The notes below the pieces were generated by a model, which was not told where the DNA came from, searched no databases, and saw only the letters and a program-made list of their open reading frames with translations. From Paraspadella gotoi (Eukaryota > Animalia > Chaetognatha): 64,000 nucleotides of DNA. Positions 2,353 through 55,204 of the stretch are shown here, in pieces. A program made the position numbers and the translations under genes. Every line of letters begins with the position of its first letter. The stretch's first letter is position 1. The DNA lies in contig CM119268.1 in the NCBI GenBank assembly GCA_051294375.1, positions 22,571,996 through 22,635,995 on the forward strand, given 5' to 3'.

Positions 2353-5300
2353 ATGTCCCTCAAAGCCGTTCCTTTGCTGTACCTTAATTTGGGAGGGGAA
2401 ATGCTTTACATTTTGGATCAACGACTCAGAGCGCAGAACATCCCGCAGGTCGGTCACATTGCATCGTCGCCGACGGTGGACTGGGCAGGAATTTATTGGG
2501 ATTTGGGTTAGAGTCAAAAAGGGGTCTGTAATAATTAAAAATTAATCACCAAAAATTTTGACAACTAAAAAGGCGTTTATGACAATTCCTAAGCCAAAGA
2601 AGAGCAAGAATAAATGCTACGATGAAGAGCTATTGAGTCTTGTTCTATTATTCAGGACAAATCGAAACGAGTCCTTCACGACATCCTGTGCCACATGTTG
2701 GCCAAACCCTTCGTGGTGGAACTGTTTAAGCCCCAAGAGATCTACTCTAAAAAGGCCATGCGTACCGTTTTCGATCACCTGGCGCATTCCTCGATCATGA
2801 GGCTCAACACAGGTAATAAATGCTAAGTTTTCTTTACTTGTTGAAAAATATTTGTTGAAATGAATTTTTATATTATGAACGTTTGGTTTGAAGAAGTAAA
2901 GGTCATTAGAGTTGCGAATTCAGATTACGGATTACAGATCCACAGTAGTCTTGATGTCGCCACTTTAGTCCACACTGCTCAAACCCACCGCCCCCCCAGC
3001 GTCAATGGACAAGTTGTTCGATCTGATGACGATGGCAGTCAAGTATCAACTCTCGATGGCAAAAAGACCCAAGGAGATGCTCCTCATCACCCTCAATCAC
3101 TTCGACACTGTCTACGAGTTCGTTAGAGACAACGCCTCCTGTCGCGCCCTCATGGAGGAATTTTATCAACTGTTCACTGTGGTGAGTGAGGATTGATCAA
3201 AGTATTTGATAATGTTCAGTAGTAATGAATTAATAACTAATCGCAGACTTACGGCACATGTCCCCGGGAGAGCTGCAGTTCATCAGATACACCCTCCTCA
3301 ACTTCTTTCAAGACATGCACATTCGCGTCTCGATATTTCTGAAGGACAGGTCAGACTTTCGGCTATATTCTATTATAAGTTTATGTTCTTTTAGAAGAGT
3401 TGATTTCCTTTTTCTAGTTCATTTTTATGCTTCAATTATCAACATCAAGTTTATTTTTTGGTCCCTTGATTAAAAGAAAAACCTTGAGCTGAGGTTCCCT
3501 CGTTCATTTTCCTTAACTTCTTTTTAATTCTTGCTATCAAGAGTCCAAAGTCAAGACGGATTCTTCATTTACGAAAAGGGAGGATCGGTGCCTCATGATA
3601 CGGAAATACCAGGAACGATTAGGTGAGTTTCCTTGGAAATATCAAAATTTAATGAGTAAATATTAATATTATAAAATATGCATATTATTGGACCAGTATT
3701 GATTGATGAGCGACTCTCAACGATTTCCAAATAAAATATTCAATGAGAAATCGATGTTCGACTTCTTTCAACCTTTCGCTTTCTTTTTTTTTATTTTGTT
3801 CTATTTATAACTTTCTCAACTCTTTTATAATTCTGGAAAAAACTCTGCTAATCTTTTTTGCGCCGAATAAATAAATTCAGGCGGGAGAAAAGAAACGCGA
3901 TCCAGTGTTTTCGTTTTCGTTTGATCGATGGGAAGGAAAAAAAAAAAGGAGCAACGTTTAGGAAAATGATCCTTTCTTCATGGCCTCTGGGCTAAAGAGG
4001 AGGATGATTAGAAAGTCCATAGAAGATATCAAGACTCAAGAGGCAGTCAAATCCGTTACAGAAGAAGTCCCCCCTCTAAAAATTTTAGATACAAAAAGTA
4101 TATAATAACTTCCCATAATTTATTTCAATGGATCCTCGCAATATCCAACAATTTTCTCCCTCCGATTGTCATCTTTCAAACAGAGTGTATGGGTCGGATG
4201 GAACGCCGTCCAAGATGGAGACATTCAGCCCAGGGGAGATCTATCAGTTGTCGGAACCAGAGGGATCGGACGACCGGTTCGGGGCGAGGGGCACCACTCT
4301 CGGCAACAACATGTAAGGCTCATGAGTTAGAAGAGTTAAGTTGAATAGTCTTTCAAAAAAGGAAAAGAAAGGATAAGAAATAATATTGACTAATTGAGTA
4401 AGCAATGGCAAAAAAAATGACAAAAGTACAATGTAGTAGCTATCAAAACCTCTCTCAAACCAAGACTAAGAATCATATCTCCCTCCCCTCCTTTCCTCAA
4501 GGTACGCCGGAAAAGCGCAAGCCGCCTCCAACGCCCTCCAAACTCGTCCACCAGCGCCTCCTCGACGGGAGTCGGAGCTCGAGGATCTCCAAATCGCCGC
4601 CAGCAAAATCTTACCCGTCAAAGTCTGAATCCGGTAGGAGAGAGGAGTTTGACTGGATAGGATGGAAAAAGAGGGTTAAGGAGAGGGCGGAGGAGAAGGC
4701 GGTTGGAAGAGATCGACAAAGGGGAGAGAGGGAAGGGTGGAAGTAATCGGAGATTAAAGAAAATAAACAGCTTCGAGGGACAAAAGAAAAACAAAGGCAG
4801 TTTTGGAAACTTCAAGGAAAAAAGAGGCCAAGGTGCTTTAACTTCGGTTTTGAATCGATGGAAAAAATCATGTGATCAAATCATTTAGTAATGAGTAGGG
4901 ATGTCAAATGGGTATTCTTTCAATGAGTACGAAACATTTTTATAACGCATTGACGTAGGTGGAGTGAAGGTGGGGTCCAACCCTCTCGCCGAGACGGAAC
5001 TCCGGCTTCTGTCCACGTTGATCGGAGCGGCGCCGCGAAAAAGGGAAAGGAACCAAAGTGCAAGAGGCCGAGTTCAAGCTGAATCTCTTCAACGACGCCC
5101 ACGAGGAGCAAGAGTATCAAGAGAGGTAAAGGACAAGAGGATAAGTCATAGGATGTCGGGCAATGATGGAGGATCGATATTAAGAGTTGGGAGACAAGGT
5201 GCTAATTGTTTGTGGCAATGAAAAGGATGATTAAGAGATGCGTAGCAGTATTGAACAAATGAGTCACTCAACTTTAGAAATAAATTGATTAAAACAGGAT

Positions 5301-30400: not shown

Positions 30401-32380
30401 ATATTACACGCCTTCTAGTAAATTAATTAACGTTAACCATATTAAATCCTTTAATTCATCTCCCTTCCTTACCTTGATCTCCTCTCGTAATCGTATCTTC
30501 CCTTCCTTCCTCCACGCGACGAGGACGGCGGACCCCATCGCTGGTACGAATACCAATCTTCGTAATAGTAACCCCGCCGTCCGCCTCTACCGCCTCTGCC
30601 GCCGCCGCCGCCGCCGCGATAATCGCCGCTCCACCGCTCCTCGCCGTAACGACGCCGCTCGTCTTCGCGAGGTCGTCGTCGTCGTCCTTCCTCGTCGTCA
30701 TAATTGTCATCGTGGTCGTCGTCTCGTCGTTTCTTCCTCTTCGCCGGTGGAGGGCTCTGAGAGCGAGGAGGGGAAGTGGAAGAGTAGGAAGAAGAAGAAT
30801 CTAGAGACGAGGATCGACGAGTCTCCTTCCTCTTTTTCTTCTTCTTTTCTTTTTTCTTCTTCTCTTCCTCTTCCTTCTTCTTCTTTTTCTTCTTCTTCTT
30901 CTTCTCGTCGAGGATGTCGAGGGAGCATTCTCCGGCGAGCATGGCCTCGATCTCCGTCATGCTGATGTCCGAGTCGCTCGAGGAATCGTCGGTGTAGTTG
31001 ACGAGGAGATCCTTGAAGCTTCCGAATTTTCCGAAGCCTGAGGAAGAGGCTTCCGTCTCCTTCTCCTTTTTCGTCTTCTCTTCATTCTCTTTGTCCTCTC
31101 TCTTCTTCTCTTTCTTTTCTTTCTTCTCCTTCTTATTCTTCTTCTTTTCCTTCTCTTTCTCTTCTGAAGGCGAATCTTCCCTCTCCTTCTCCTCCTCTTC
31201 CTCCTTCTCCAACAGATTCATCTTCTGCACGATGAAGTCGCGGAACATGTCGTCGACGTCCCGCGCCTCTGACTCTTTATCCCGACTGCTCGATCGCTCC
31301 TTTTCCCCGCTCCTCTCCTGTTCCTTTCGCTCCTCTTCACGCTTTTCCCGGCGCTCTTTTTCGCGCTTCAAGCGGCGTTCATCCTTGGCCGCGGTGTCTC
31401 CGTCGGCGTCGACGGAAGTCTCCTTCGTCTCGACCATTTTCTTGTACTGCTTCATCTTTATCTCCAGGCGCATGCGCAGGAGCTTTTCCGTTTCCTATAC
31501 AAGTAAAGCAAGAACACATTTTATTAACAGAAATATAACTTATATAATTTATGAACTTGTGGCAGCAAGACTTAAAGCTGCCTCACTGCTGTCCGTCCTC
31601 AGCCTCGTCTCAATGGCTGAGCAGGCTAAATCATCTCATTCCATCCGTGCGTCCCGGGTTCAATCCCTGGGTATCCCGGTTCTGGCTTAAATGTGACGGT
31701 GCCGGTATAAACATGCCAGTGACAGGAGGCGGTCACTGAGGGTCCGCAGCCCCTACGCCAGTTGGTGAGATACCCCGCGCCCCGGGTATCACAGGCTATC
31801 CTCCCGTTGCCATAAACTCATAAAGGAGATCTTAATATTTTCTACCCGCCCGGCCCTTTAATTTAGGAAAATATTTGCGCAGTTATTTTTCATGCCCTAA
31901 GTATTAGGTATAGATTTATACATCGATATTCAAATCTCACCTAAATTTACCAGACCAAGTAAAATTTTATGACGAAGTTTATTTTTCACGAAGGCTCGCA
32001 TAACAAAAGGAGAAAACTGAACGTTCTCAATAAAAGCGTTGTTTGTGAACAAAAGTGAACAGTTTATCTAGATTCGTCAACCCACCCCAACTCCCCCTCA
32101 ACACCCCTCCAACCTGATTCGCCTCCAATTCCTTCATCCTTTCCTCGGCGACGCCTTCTTCGCCTCCATCGACGACGCCGTTAACTTCCTCCAACGCCGC
32201 CTTTGGAATCGGCGCCTCTCTCTCCGCCTCCTTCGACTTCTTTCGTTTCTTGTGATGATGATGATGATGATGATGACGCCGTGATTTGTCGTCGTCGTCT
32301 TTAGCGTCGCGTTTGTCCTTCTTTCGCTTCTTGTGCTTCTCCTTTAGCGGCGGAGAGGCGTGGCCCTCCGAGGTCACCAT
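27154..32380 (-). CDS. SON: SON splicing cofactor (RS-rich region, G-patch, dsRBD)
   Basis: IDKAKLLEIARANA; NPLDVEAL..GLFTGSTG; G-patch MGRRLLEKMGWKDGQALGKTNEGALEPLLLDIKTDRKGL; KDLSGKHP; dsRBD end KKHAKSLAATVCLQ/AMGLLPRDAVVPDA*. Confidence 0.94.
29396..29571. mobile_element. Small MITE-like element in a SON intron
   Basis: Terminal inverted repeats cagagttgtctccatc / gatggagacaattctg; internal ccctaa repeats; no TSD visible. Confidence 0.5.
31557..31817. mobile_element. Structured dispersed repeat (SINE-like); related copies at ~39500-39575 and, inverted, ~51191-51296
   Basis: Shared blocks gcaagacttaaagctgc.tcactgctgtccgtcctcagc, ctcaatggctgagca, ccagttggtgaga..cgccccgggtatcaca and cctcccgttgccataaa; B-box-like gggttcaatccc. 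Confidence 0.75.
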
Positions 32381-49278: not shown

Positions 49279-52200
49279 TCAAGTGGATTTCGTTGTCTCT
49301 TGAGCCTCGAACTTTGGATATTTGGCCTCCACCTCCGCCCAACTCATCTTCCCGTCCGCCAACCTCTGTAATTAAAAGTCATATTTTTATTTAAGAGAGA
49401 GAGATGATAAATAAACAAACATATAACATTCCCTCCCCTTCCTCCTCTCCTCGACCTGCACGACCCCGGGAATCTCTTCCAACGGCATCCTGACTTGCGC
49501 CATCGAGTCGCGCTCCCTCAGCGTGGCAGTGGGCGGTGCCCGGTTGACCGTGTCAAAGTCGACGGTGACGCCGAAAGGGATGGCGATGCCGTCCGTGCGG
49601 GCGTAGCGCCGACCGATGGAACCGGAAGAGTCGTCCACCCGATGGGAGACGCCGAGTGAGGTGAGGGAAGTGGATAAGGACTGGGAGAAGAGGGAAGAAG
49701 GAAAGTTAAAATTAATGGTAAGTTCGAAACTCAACTTTTAACTTTGACATTCATGTATTTGTCAAGTTACTTAATTTGAAACGCAACAACAACTTGAAAC
49801 CAAAAAAATTTGATCCTTTTTTTCATTTATGTAGAACACGAAAATAATATGAAAAATTTGCGTACATGTTTATTTATAAATTTGTTTATTCTCTCTTACC
49901 TGCACGAACGGCGTGAACTCTGGTTTATCCGAGAGCGGAAGCACGGAACACTTGTAAGGAGCAATGATGGCGGGAAGGGAGAAGAAGGACCTTTGCTCGT
50001 CTCCGTCGCGGACACGGAAGTTGTGCTCGAAAACGGCGTACATGATGCGGCCGACGCCGAAGGAAGGTTCGATAACCGACGGCACCACCTCCTCCACGTG
50101 AACCTTCTTCCTCTCCCGCTTCACCGCCACCATCTCCGAGGTGATTCGGACGGAGCCTGATTGATTGAAGGGAGGGAGAGAGAGAGAGAGAGAGAGAATC
50201 GGGTGAGCGGTCAAGTTCTTTGTTATTCGATAGTTTTGTGAGTCTCACATTTAAAACTATTCACTCACTCGATCACTCAATCATCCTTACCGGAAAGCGG
50301 CGTCGCTACTTCCACCGCCGCCGCGGCGCCTTCCGTCTTCTCCGCCAGTTTCCTCTCCTTGACTCCGACTCCCTTCAAGCCGGATACCTCCTCCAAAGCC
50401 GCGACCACCAGCGGCAGCTTCTCCGCGTCCGTCTTCGCAGCGCCGGGAAGCGCTTCCCGCCCTTCTTTGCCGAAGGAGAAGATGTGGGCGAACCATCGAT
50501 GAAGATGAGGATAAAACTCTTTGGACGGCGGAGATCCTCTGGACAAGCGGTTCCACAGGCAGAGGTCGTCCTGCGTCGGCGCGTGACCCTCAACGTAGCT
50601 GTTGGCTGCGAAATGAGCGTCGATTACGCGACGAACCGACGCCGAATCTATCGTCGGAGCCTCCAGGGGATCGTCCACCGGCGCCGGTCGAGACGGAGTC
50701 GGCGCAGTCTCCGGCGGCGCTACAGATCCTTCGCCGATCGAGAGAGCGAACCATCCTTGAGACTCCAACTGCTTCTCGATGACGGGAATGTCCTTCGCCT
50801 CCAAGAGAGCTAAAGCGTCCATGACGATCTTGGCCTCCTTCTTGAAGGCCTTCCCCAGCGCCGCCTTGTTCTGCGTCAGTTTGACGACGTCTTCGAGACG
50901 CGGGTCGGCCAATTTCTTCTCGGCGACCAGTTTGACGCCGGTGGCGCGGGAGTGCTGAGTGAGATCGAAGGCGGCGCGATCGGCGCACCCTACCGTCTCC
51001 ACCCAACCGTAGGTCGTTTTCACCTCAGCGTCCCAACAGTCGGCGGCGTAGTGGGCCATCTCGTTGGACATGTGCTGACGGAAGCGGACGCGGTCGGGGG
51101 ACACGCCCACCTGGGAAAAAGAGGAGGAAAAGGAAATATAAACAAACAACATATGAAATTGGTACATGACGGCAAATTCTAAAACCATCTATTTATGGCA
51201 ACGGGAGGAATGCCTGTGGGACGCACGGTTGTAACGAGATGATTTAGCCTGCTGAGGACGGACAGCAGTGATGCAGCTTTAAGTCTTGCGACAACACATT
51301 CATTAAATAAACTTGACATTCCCCTTTGGTTCTGGGCCTTTTCATCGTCCTTTGCAGTCAGCGCCCTCACCTTGACGAGGAACTGGAATATCCTCCCGAT
51401 GAAATATCCCAGCGTCTGATTGGCGATGAGACCGGAGTCGACGGCCGACTTGAGGGAAACTTGCTGGATGCCTTCACCGTCCATCTGAGCGCAGGCGGAG
51501 AAGAGCGGGAGGACGAGATCCTCCACTTGGTGGAACTTGGGATGGAAGGCTTTGGCGAGGGGGTCGACGAAATGCTCGATCTCCGCCATGGTGAACTCGC
51601 GGACGCGGATGAGGCCGGAACGAGGGGCGATCTCGTTGCGGAAGCTGAAGGGAAAATCAGTCAGTTAGGGAAATTCAACTCACCATAACTATTAGGGTTC
51701 TCACACACCTGCAGCCAATCTGCGCCGCGGCAAAAGGCAGCTTTCCGTTGTTAAACTCCAGGAGCCTCTTAAAATTGACGAACATGCCCTGCGCCGTCTC
51801 GGGCCGAAGAAAGCCCTTGGCCAGCCCCGTGGGTCCGATCGAGGTGGAGAACATGAGATTGAAGGCGACGCATTCGGAGACGGCGTTGCCCGTCGTCGGC
51901 GAAGTCATCTTGAAGCGGGCGATGATGTCGTCCATGTGGACGCCGCTCAAATCGTCGAGCCGAGCGAGGATCGTCTTGGCTTCGTTCCTGAGGATAAGGA
52001 TTTAATTGAATTTCGTACTAGAATTCTAAATATTTAGATATTTCAAGAGAGATAATTCAATTAATGCATTAATAAGTTGGCTTGTAAATCTACCATCTTC
52101 TTTCTTCATTTCAATTTTGAGAGACGGAAAGAGGGAGAAATAGTGGAATGAAAGATCTAAGAGATGATTATTTAATATGATATTAAATGAGATTGAATTT

Positions 52201-53860
52201 CTCAATATCATTTACATATTGTGGTATTAAATGTAAATGTATCCATTTTCATTTTGGATTTCAATATTAGTTCTGTTTTTCGGATACAGAATAGAGATCT
52301 TTCATTAACTAGTCTCTGAGGCAAATACCTCTGGACGCAAAGTTAATTTAAGGGTTGTCTCTATATTTATAGAAGTCCTTCGAAAATCTGCAATATGTAA
52401 ATGAGAATAAAGACTTTCAAAATAAACTCCTTCACCTATTTTCGTCCGTTGACTTTTTATCGACGAGCAACTTCTGCAGATGATCCTTGATGAGATGATC
52501 GGCGCGGAAGCACTCGCCCGTCTTGACGTCCTTAACCATGAAATCGGCGAAGCGGTCCACGTGACCCGAAGCCTTGAGGACCTGTTCCGGCGTTAGCATG
52601 GAGCACTCCACCTCCAGCATGTGCTCCTCGAGGACGAAGTGACGACGCCATTCGGCCAGGAGGTTCGCCTGAGCGAAGATCGGAATAGAATTATTGGGAC
52701 GAGTAGAAGTGAGAGTTTGACTTTTGATCGCATCACAATCAAAAATTGACACTCATGAAAATAACACAGAATTGTCAGCTTGTCAGCTTATCCCACTGCT
52801 TACATTTCAAAGTTTGGCAGAAATAAGCAAAAGCTCATCATAGTAACGATGTATTTTACGACTGATTAAAACGATTTTTTTTATAGGTTCTTGAAAAATT
52901 CGATCGTGGAGCTTAATTCAAAAATGTTGATTTCCTCGCTGAAAAACATCACGGGGCGAGCAAACTCAAAGCCAATTCCTTCTACGTCCCTTTGCAAGCT
53001 AAGAAGCTCGTTGATATATATTAAAAACTATTTTTTTTACGCTTATTTGACTTCATTTAAAAAATAGTCTATACGGCAACATGTAAATGAGATTAACGGA
53101 TTCACAAGATCGTTAAAGATCTCATAAAATGTCATATTCACAAGTCACCAACTTCTTAAACTTTGCACCAATAAAGGGCTAGCCCTACCATCACCATCAG
53201 CAGCCAACAAACCTTCATGGCGCACCCCATGGGTCCGAAGTCGTACAGTCCGCTGACTCCTCCATAGATGGCGAATGACTGATCGTAGAAGAATCTCTGT
53301 TTGAGGAGATCCTCCATCTTGAGTCGATCAATCGTCTCCTCCTTCGGCGTCAACTCTAACTCTTTCTCCTCCAACGCCTTCTTCCTCGCCTTCAACTCGG
53401 CCACGGCCTTCTTCAAGTCCATCTCGTTATCGCCCACTTCCTTCAGCCGGCGCACCAGGTCGCCCTGCTCCTTGACCCGGGCGCGGAACGGCGCCAACTG
53501 AGCCTCCATGGCGACGACGAAGGAATCGGAGAGTTCGGAGCGATCCACGGGCTGCAGGAAGCGACCCTCGGCGGTCAACGAGTATCTGGCGGAGAGAGCG
53601 GTTCTCTTGCGCGAGAATTTCCCGCTCGTCCAAACTGGGGTGGCGGTGGAGGGTTGAGTGGTGGCGGGGGAAGATGTTTCGTCGGGACTCGACGGAAATG
53701 TTTGAGGCGATGACGAACTCGAGCGAAGAGTTAAGATCGAAGCCGCTTGTCTTTTGTTAACGAATTGACCGACCGTTAGAGGCGCGAAGTCGCCGGAACC
53801 GAATCGAGTACAGATCCTACCGAAAACCGAAATCCTTAATACAGAGACGAGACGAACCAT
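49279..53860 (-). CDS. GARS1: Glycyl-tRNA synthetase (mitochondrial/cytosolic, WHEP domain) with an extra inserted domain
   Basis: Presequence-like region from ATG 53860; [17 protein letters not shown]; [25 protein letters not shown]; [11 protein letters not shown]; [11 protein letters not shown]; [13 protein letters not shown]; [15 protein letters not shown]; ends [13 protein letters not shown]. Confidence 0.97.
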
Positions 53861-54100: not shown

Positions 54101-55204
54101 CTAATTCTCCCCGAAATCGTCAACCTCCAACGCGATTCCCTCTCGATCCACCGCGTCGTCCAAATCGTCGTCGTCGTCTTTTTTCTCTCGATATTCGACG
54201 AAGCTTCCTTCGATGTGGCTCGACTTAAAGGTCGCTCCTAGTCGCGCCGGCGCCGACACATCCTCCAGTCGCAGCCAGGGTCTTTCGGGAACGTCCACCG
54301 ACGCGGCGCCAACGCCCGACGCGCCTTTGAACCTCTCGGCGAGTCGAGAGACGGCGTCGGCGACGACACGATTGTCTCTCGACGCCTTCAGCTTCTTCTG
54401 CAGCTCGAGCGACTCGGCGAGGGAGACCAGCGCCGTCGTCCGATCGGAAGTCGACGGCGGATGAAGACAGTCTTCGGGAGGTGTGAGCGAAGACTCGCGA
54501 GAGGCGGGGCGGGCGGCGGCGAGGCGGACGATGGCTTCCGGTTTAGGGAGAACTTTGGGATCGGTAGATTTAAGAGGCACGTTGGGTTTGAAGCGGACCG
54601 TCGACGGCGCGAGTTGGCGTGTCTCCGCGAAGATCTCGCGCAAGACGTTGCGTCGCTCGTCGACGTCGTCATCGGGCAACGCCGCGGCGGCGGGCGGCGA
54701 GGATTTGGCGGCGACTCGATCCGCTTTGAATTTCGAGACGCGGACGATGGGTTTGGCGAAGTCGGTGTTTGTTCGAGAATCAGCGATTCTAATCGGTTCC
54801 CGCGATCCGTCACTACCTTCCGCTGGTCGCAGTCTTTCGACAATGTCTACGTCTCCCATCAGAGTTCTTTTCTCACCAGACTCTCGAGTCTTAGTTCCAC
54901 TTTCATCGTTAACCGACTTTTTCGTGTCGACCTCCATCGGCGAGACCATAACGCGACTCGAGAATGCCCTCGACAAAGCCTCGACGCCGTTGTTGTCTCC
55001 GTCGTCAAGGGCAACGCCTTTCTTTCTCGCGATTCGCTCCTTCAACGAAGACGCGAACCTAGAGACTTTCTCGCCGCCGTCGGGCAGAGTCCGCACCAAG
55101 TTGCTGTTATTGAGGATGTTCTCTTGTCTCCGTAGCAAGTACTCCAGCTGCTGGAGTGGGGCGGAGTCGAGGTCCTCTAGTTTTCCCTGCTTTTCGTTGT
55201 ACAT
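54101..55204 (-). CDS. POLR2M: RNA polymerase II subunit GRINL1A/Gdown1, uninterrupted CDS
   Basis: LEYLLRRQENILNNSNLVRTLPDGGEKV (LPDxG motif); C-terminal LVSLAESLELQKK..RLAERF..VEYRE followed by an acidic tail. Confidence 0.82.
   Translation of the reverse strand: MYNEKQGKLEDLDSAPLQQLEYLLRRQENILNNSNLVRTLPDGGEKVSRFASSLKERIARKKGVALDDGDNNGVEALSRAFSSRVMVSPMEVDTKKSVNDESGTKTRESGEKRTLMGDVDIVERLRPAEGSDGSREPIRIADSRTNTDFAKPIVRVSKFKADRVAAKSSPPAAAALPDDDVDERRNVLREIFAETRQLAPSTVRFKPNVPLKSTDPKVLPKPEAIVRLAAARPASRESSLTPPEDCLHPPSTSDRTTALVSLAESLELQKKLKASRDNRVVADAVSRLAERFKGASGVGAASVDVPERPWLRLEDVSAPARLGATFKSSHIEGSFVEYREKKDDDDDLDDAVDREGIALEVDDFGEN

Follow-up and report, generated by a model that had tools for sequence, protein, structure and literature searches.

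What is a domain of a translation elongation factor doing inside the catalytic part of a glycyl-tRNA synthetase (GlyRS)? The question is raised by a stretch of 64,000 nucleotides from the chaetognath Paraspadella gotoi (contig CM119268.1, positions 22,571,996 to 22,635,995; the whole stretch is called the window below), which holds an animal GlyRS gene on its minus strand, from 53860 to 49279. An earlier note on this DNA had described an insert in the enzyme resembling the glutathione S-transferase C-terminal (GST-C)-like domain of eEF1B-beta, the protein that UniProt calls EF-1-beta and structural papers call eEF1B-alpha. Sequence comparison and a predicted model identify the core of this insert as the N-terminal helical domain of EF-1-beta, and we propose, with a probability of about 0.55, that from its place in the insertion-3 hairpin it docks GlyRS on the GST domain of eEF1B-gamma, near the site of eEF1A recharging, for hand-off of Gly-tRNA.

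Joining eight exons bounded by GT..AG gives a GlyRS of 823 amino acids (aa) without a stop, counted from the ATG at 53509. Exon 51110-50291, on the minus strand, has no stop and contains the GlyRS peptides quoted in the note; its catalytic segment aligns with residues 366-489 of human GlyRS (E 7e-44) and runs straight into the insert. Ordinary GlyRS has a short turn at the hairpin where the insert sits, and the anchors flanking insertion 3 are 261 aa apart in the window protein, as against 112-117 in ordinary GlyRS. Because insertion 3 of the human enzyme, described as highly mobile, spans residues 412-518 (PMC9731397), we place the insert within it, in agreement with the earlier assignment. 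What had been read as a stop-free insert of about 145 aa, splicing in phase from 50291 to 50156, proves to be 146 aa long, with its donor at 50291/50290 (phase 1) and its acceptor at 50157/50156, both used in a contig. The core had been put at about 50441-50650; the location was right, and the exact bounds are 50657-50442.

The contig comes from run X1, which is RNA by guess only, is stored as contigs and is the single run containing the GlyRS gene, runs X2 and X3 having given no match to it. Contig 1 of X1 (4944 nt) covers all GlyRS exons with no differing letters. Since it joins exons 5 and 6 (window 50290-51107 as record 3282-4099, window 49900-50153 as record 4102-4355), this probable transcript has lost the intron 50290-50157 and kept the insert, and it skips the remaining six introns too, as listed joints. 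On 50206-51160 alone exactly one contig fits, its loose end at 50290 corresponding to the start of exon 6; over this interval no insert-skipping isoform was seen in that one contig, a form of storage that can lose rare variants. The GlyRS reading frame is intact and expressed. It is hardly credible that the insert reflects intron retention, faulty assembly or mere chance similarity, even with the gene found in one run whose RNA nature is guessed. All seven introns are gone from the X1 contig, in which the insert is still present, the insert's 5' edge has no in-frame GT donor of a phase fitting the acceptor, and four independent intron-free orthologues carry it; contig and orthologues together refute the artefact.

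The identity of the core was established by comparisons of sequence and of predicted structure. With phmmer against the sequences of the PDB, the best match of the core is 5dqs_D, the N-terminal domain of human EF-1-beta (EEF1B2), at E 5.9e-8, so the resemblance is not due to chance; 25 of 65 aligned residues are identical to the human protein (38%, counted by hand). A profile built from 11 carriers (GlyRS proteins with the domain) reaches 5dqs_D at E 3e-18, AIMP3 at about 1e-5 and EPRS at 2e-3, the GST domains of the multi-synthetase complex (MSC) as a whole falling between 1e-5 and 1. An AlphaFold2 model, made with an alignment of 11 diverse rows over the domain and one row over the GlyRS part, has a predicted local distance difference test score (pLDDT) mostly of 90-94 over the core (exon residues 151-220); the domain alone is folded in it, and the GlyRS part is wrong and draws unrelated helical matches. 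Prediction from eight near-identical rows gave a mean pLDDT of only 42. Searches with the predicted model place 5dqs_D first both in Foldseek (E 0.013, probability 1.00) and in VIA-align (Z 9.4, root-mean-square deviation 2.6, 82 residues), where it is the sole chain of 48,161 with Z >= 8; the next unrelated row has Z 7.0, and the AIMP3 and EPRS GST domains have Z 5.8-6.0. By sequence and model alike, the core is much nearer to eEF1B-alpha than to AIMP3 or EPRS, and with 5dqs_D at the top by phmmer, carrier profile, Foldseek and VIA-align, the earlier identification stands.

Some results weigh against this identification. The Foldseek E-value is just 0.013, and a Z of 9.4 is modest for a helical domain. 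Pfam GST_C (PF00043) scores 17.4 bits for the window insert against a cut-off of 20.7, and GST_C and Arc1p_N_like (PF21972; 12.5 bits in the orthologue P0001, cut-off 27) both stay below cut-off in the window protein and its four relatives; among 14 proteins scanned with Pfam, 11 of them carriers, only the Palaemon protein P0049 passes (30.7). In the Atlas, an Arc1p_N_like cluster is the top feature match (0.92), with 24% of its members bearing that family, and a search with the orthologue P0004 returned generic GlyRS clusters only. A catalytic glutathione S-transferase was considered and ruled out: the insert has a helical core of 72 aa between low-complexity linkers, with no strands predicted, and the thioredoxin half with its glutathione site is absent.

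The same insert was found in relatives. Four full-length orthologues (P0001-P0004, 813-944 aa, about 80% identical), in which PF00458, PF00587 and PF03129 score above cut-off, hold it at the same place. Their identity to the window protein is 70-72% over the flanking enzyme, 62-73% over the core, 60-63% over a 30-aa segment after the core, and 17-33% over the linkers. The core is thus, in these alignments, conserved as strongly as the surrounding enzyme while the linkers drift, which indicates selection, and the reading frame is intact in five orthologues whose enzymes diverge from that of the window by up to about 20%. The post-core segment is basic, has a helix (233-242) predicted at low confidence, and is missing from crustacean carriers. 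P0278, a fifth relative with the domain, is a fragment only; its start falls midway through the domain, in what resembles intron sequence, and its alignment ends where the 3' intron of the window gene lies, hinting at a 3' intron in common with the window and an extra intron within the domain. A metagenome scan gave 13 loci, of which one (L001) is the transcript of P0004 and the other 12 are weak matches, including one (L013) that is unrelated on inspection.

A wider survey corrects the earlier reading on one point: the fusion is not peculiar to one lineage. We compared 202 GlyRS cluster representatives from three homologue searches, taking the best 120 from each of the larger ones, so that carriers are over-represented in the sample; the search profile A2 included the GlyRS flank and so ranks GlyRS above free eEF1B domains, and the survey covered GlyRS only. 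Among the matches listed, 19 of the 202 representatives carry the domain and 183 do not. Four carriers, in insertion 3, belong to the clade of the window; two copepod-like proteins, P0014 and P0127 (truncated, but with P0363 as a full-length cluster mate), have the domain in that insertion-3 hairpin too, on different linkers; four malacostracan proteins, from Palaemon, Oratosquilla, Penaeus and Cherax, have it in insertion 2 (P0049, P0065, P0087, P0128; RefSeq XP_068250972.1, XP_076058191.1, XP_027224622.1, XP_069944946.1); and nine copepod-like proteins, including one of Neocalanus flemingeri (EukProt), have it at the C-terminus. The domain is absent among the listed named insects, chelicerates, a myriapod, a barnacle, molluscs and an annelid, and a further 149 GlyRS representatives contained one carrier, P0278, of the window's clade. 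All isoforms from Cherax (four other cluster members) keep the domain, isoform X2 and a 763-aa form differing only N-terminally. Two copepod-like clusters (P0015/P0365/P0367 and P0057/P0370/P0372/P0376) include proteins of 734-735 aa that stop before the C-terminal domain, so the domain may be optional there; alternative splicing, read-through and species differences are all possible sources of the two forms. As a separate observation, tandem double GlyRS proteins are annotated in P0011, P0012 (ladybird isoform X2, about 1290 aa), P0013 and P0035 (date palm), and may be gene-model fusions.

Because the domain is located at three different sites, it was likely added to GlyRS more than once. Mean identity of the domain between sites is 25-34%, not above the 38% at which the window's domain matches human EF-1-beta, a level that fits separate captures. 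We built a GlyRS tree of 30 rows, 14 of them carriers, by quick search under LG+G4 with columns filled in <70% of rows dropped, from a sample without named deuterostome, nematode, flatworm, cnidarian or sponge rows. The copepod-like insertion-3 carriers group with the domain-less sisters P0073 and P0074 (Shimodaira-Hasegawa-like approximate likelihood-ratio test [SH-aLRT] 99), and the approximately unbiased test rejects both a single clade of all 14 carriers (p-AU 5e-79) and a clade of the window group with the copepod-like insertion-3 carriers (p-AU 2e-43). The fewest changes of domain state on this tree number four. In two quick trees the window's clade lies outside the arthropods, molluscs and annelid of the sample (SH-aLRT 95), a FastTree run places it weakly with Malacostraca (support 0.48), and the window GlyRS lacks a Leu found in 17 of 17 arthropod-type sequences covering that site. 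Counting against separate origins, a clade of the window group with Malacostraca is not rejected (p-AU 0.4), and the number of gains is therefore not firm. We accordingly advance only tentatively, with the odds leaning somewhat the other way, the stronger proposal of at least four independent captures by GlyRS, at three positions of which one, the insertion-3 hairpin, was used twice, each to plug into eEF1B-gamma. One old capture followed by relocation and hidden exons could also account for the pattern. Repeated gains would point to repeated selection for a link between GlyRS and eEF1B.

The survey also bears on the idea that the insert is a passenger without function, a piece of an eEF1B gene that became exonic and is put up with by the enzyme. 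Insertion 3, being flexible, probably tolerates additions, the short copepod-like forms do without the C-terminal domain, and so do the 183 representatives that lack it at any site; the conservation of the core amid drifting linkers, the intact frames of the orthologues and the repeated presence of the domain in crustaceans nevertheless make this reading very improbable.

For a docking role, the parent domain offers a precedent: in the 5DQS structure it binds eEF1B-gamma through D21-V29 and C50-I59, as reported in PMC9458455, and segments equivalent to both can be aligned in the GlyRS insert. The captured domain would retain its parent's partner, eEF1B-gamma; the two variable linkers would let it hang off GlyRS with catalysis undisturbed; the alpha2 dimer would offer two docking arms, competing with eEF1B-alpha for one site; and the docked enzyme would be held beside eEF1A recharging, with Gly-tRNA passed on. 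Across 20 carrier domains, six of the seven columns conserved in >=85% of rows fall within the contact segments, which make up 19 of 70 columns (hypergeometric p 0.0012). The occurrence of the module at three positions on flexible linkers suggests a tether. Human GARS is described as lying outside the MSC and as binding weakly to eEF1 delta (PMC12781879), a tendency that a fused plug would make firmer.

Several points count against docking on eEF1B-gamma. The contact segments share 9 of 19 residues with the human protein (by hand count), not clearly more than the rest of the domain does (16 of 46), the near-invariant columns may reflect the fold core, and the profile was partly built from the same rows. 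According to PMC4394549, moreover, the complex to which a synthetase belongs is not predictable from its sequence. The domain is also borne by a longer, likely mitochondrial form of GlyRS, in which an in-frame upstream ATG at 53860 extends the N-terminus. eEF1B is not expected in mitochondria. The extension, shared by the relatives, is likely a mitochondrial presequence, a reading based on the dual targeting of human GlyRS (PMC11580382). Its last 40 or so aa (within window 53509-53860, minus strand) are kept in P0002, P0005 and P0009, which exceeds the conservation expected of a presequence.

Two other roles compete with docking on eEF1B-gamma. The domain might dock on another GST-fold partner, be it the gamma-type GST domain of ValRS, AlaRS or CysRS, or AIMP2, AIMP3, EPRS or MetRS, in a lineage-specific synthetase complex. 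GST folds are a general glue of synthetase complexes (PMC1557820, PMC10452860, PMC4394549), the weak profile and structural matches to the AIMP3 and EPRS GST domains point the same way, and the limited identity to human EF-1-beta (about 38%) together with the lineage-specific conserved segment leaves room for a change of partner. We nonetheless consider this rather unlikely, given how much nearer the domain is to eEF1B-alpha and that it comprises only the three-to-four-helix portion of eEF1B-alpha and not the whole GST-C bundle of canonical GST dimers. Less probable again is a role in cis or outside translation, in which the domain stabilises or restrains insertion 3, or forms a surface related to tRNA or signalling, without any GST-fold partner. 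Such a role would suit a loop described as mobile and predicted to touch tRNA (PMC9731397) and the basic, lineage-specific post-core segment; three unrelated positions, the C-terminus among them, favour a position-independent tether over a local structural part, and long variable linkers isolate the domain.

GST-type add-ons on synthetases are established, and the GlyRS carrier appears to be undescribed. The window enzyme shares with eukaryotic alpha2 GlyRS (human GARS1; PDB 2PME, 4KQE) the WHEP domain, class II core, HGTP anticodon domain and two in-frame starts. Compared with human EF-1-beta, its extra domain, with putative gamma binding, sits as an insert inside a class II synthetase, lacks the acidic region and guanine-nucleotide exchange factor domain, and is followed by the lineage-specific conserved segment. 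The closest likeness, drawn from its published description, is to human CysRS (CARS1), a free-standing synthetase in which a cassette exon encodes a GST-C-like domain that ties the enzyme to EF-1 and was proposed to serve tRNA transfer (PMC2582632); that domain belongs to a class I enzyme and is alternatively spliced as exon 2, whereas the GlyRS domain lies within a class II catalytic domain, is fused to upstream exon sequence without an intron, and has no skipped form seen. ValRS-eEF1H, MetRS, EPRS, AIMP2, AIMP3 and yeast Arc1p are likewise reported to use GST-fold modules as heteromeric docking domains; theirs are N-terminal and mostly larger than the GlyRS insert, and ValRS is said to bind a delta-type subunit, not gamma (PMC4394549). 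Table 2 of the AARS Online paper gives GST domains for CysRS, GluRS-E, MetRS and ValRS, and for GlyRS-E only WHEP as an add-on of this kind (PMC11580382). Like the author of the earlier note, we found no description of a GlyRS with a GST or eEF1B domain in the literature searched, most subscription journals and supplements being outside its scope. As the domain is mostly below Pfam cut-offs, the crustacean fusions have gone unremarked rather than being absent from databases.

Features of the GlyRS gene and its insert in the window (coordinates as window positions)
Feature	Position	Strand	Basis or remark
GlyRS exon 1	53213..53860	-	ATG 53860; second ATG 53509 begins WHEP domain (WHEP seen on relatives)
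GlyRS exon 2	52436..52668	-	GT..AG ends; contig joints
GlyRS exon 3	51709..51987	-	GT..AG ends; contig joints
GlyRS exon 4	51371..51644	-	GT..AG ends; contig joints
GlyRS exon 5	50291..51110	-	catalytic-domain segment, then the whole insert, no intron between
In-frame insert, 146 aa, residues 490-635	50291..50726 plus intron-split codon	-	insertion-3 hairpin, near human residue 493
Linker 1, Pro/Ala-rich, variable in length and sequence	50658..50726	-	identity to the four orthologues 22-30%
EF-1-beta (eEF1B-alpha) N-terminal GST-C-like helical domain, 72 aa	50442..50657	-	phmmer, fold prediction, structure search
Loop equivalent to eEF1B-alpha D21-V29, gamma-contact segment in 5DQS	50580..50606	-	alignment and contacts reported in PMC9458455
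Helix equivalent to eEF1B-alpha C50-I59, second gamma-contact segment	50481..50510	-	alignment and contacts reported in PMC9458455
Conserved lineage-specific post-core segment: predicted helix and Gly/Val/Lys motif	50355..50441	-	60-63% identity to four relatives
Linker 2, Ala-rich	50291..50354	-	17-33% identity to relatives
Phase-1 intron, 134 nt, GT..AG	50157..50290	-	at 3' edge of insert
GlyRS exon 6	49900..50156	-	insertion 3 resumes; catalytic-core motif; start of anticodon-binding domain
GlyRS exon 7	49456..49680	-	anticodon-binding domain; GT..AG ends, contig joints
GlyRS exon 8, coding part up to TGA	49279..49365	-	contig match, reading frame

The neighbours of GlyRS in the window include Fer-like kinase, INO80 and LARGE-like genes. 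A single-exon GCOM2/POLR2M-like gene (54101-55203, minus strand; Pfam PF15328, E 1e-9) shares the strand of GlyRS and lies upstream of it, with about 240 nt between its end and the GlyRS start, and the X1 GlyRS contig is unbroken to window 54000 and has 1704 further letters; the two genes may therefore share a precursor in an operon-like manner, unless this is an assembly join. A short repeat in GlyRS intron 4 (51180-51290) is matched by many other contigs, to a summed depth of about 1000, and the same translated stretch occurs near 31000-31100; it is likely a small interspersed element.

Direct hand-off of tRNA from synthetase to elongation factor is a long-standing question for which few hard-wired examples exist (ValRS-eEF1H and the CysRS splice form), and a GlyRS with a built-in 72-aa plug of eEF1B type would be a clean test case for the delivery of Gly-tRNA, the more so as carrier proteins are already in RefSeq for farmed shrimp and crayfish. 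Insertion 3, a mobile loop discussed for the 2D type of Charcot-Marie-Tooth disease (CMT2D), can carry a whole folded domain. The surprising part is that one docking domain appears repeatedly on GlyRS: its presence at three sites, with one hairpin occupied on two occasions, would make GlyRS an unusual example of a housekeeping enzyme that captured a domain convergently.

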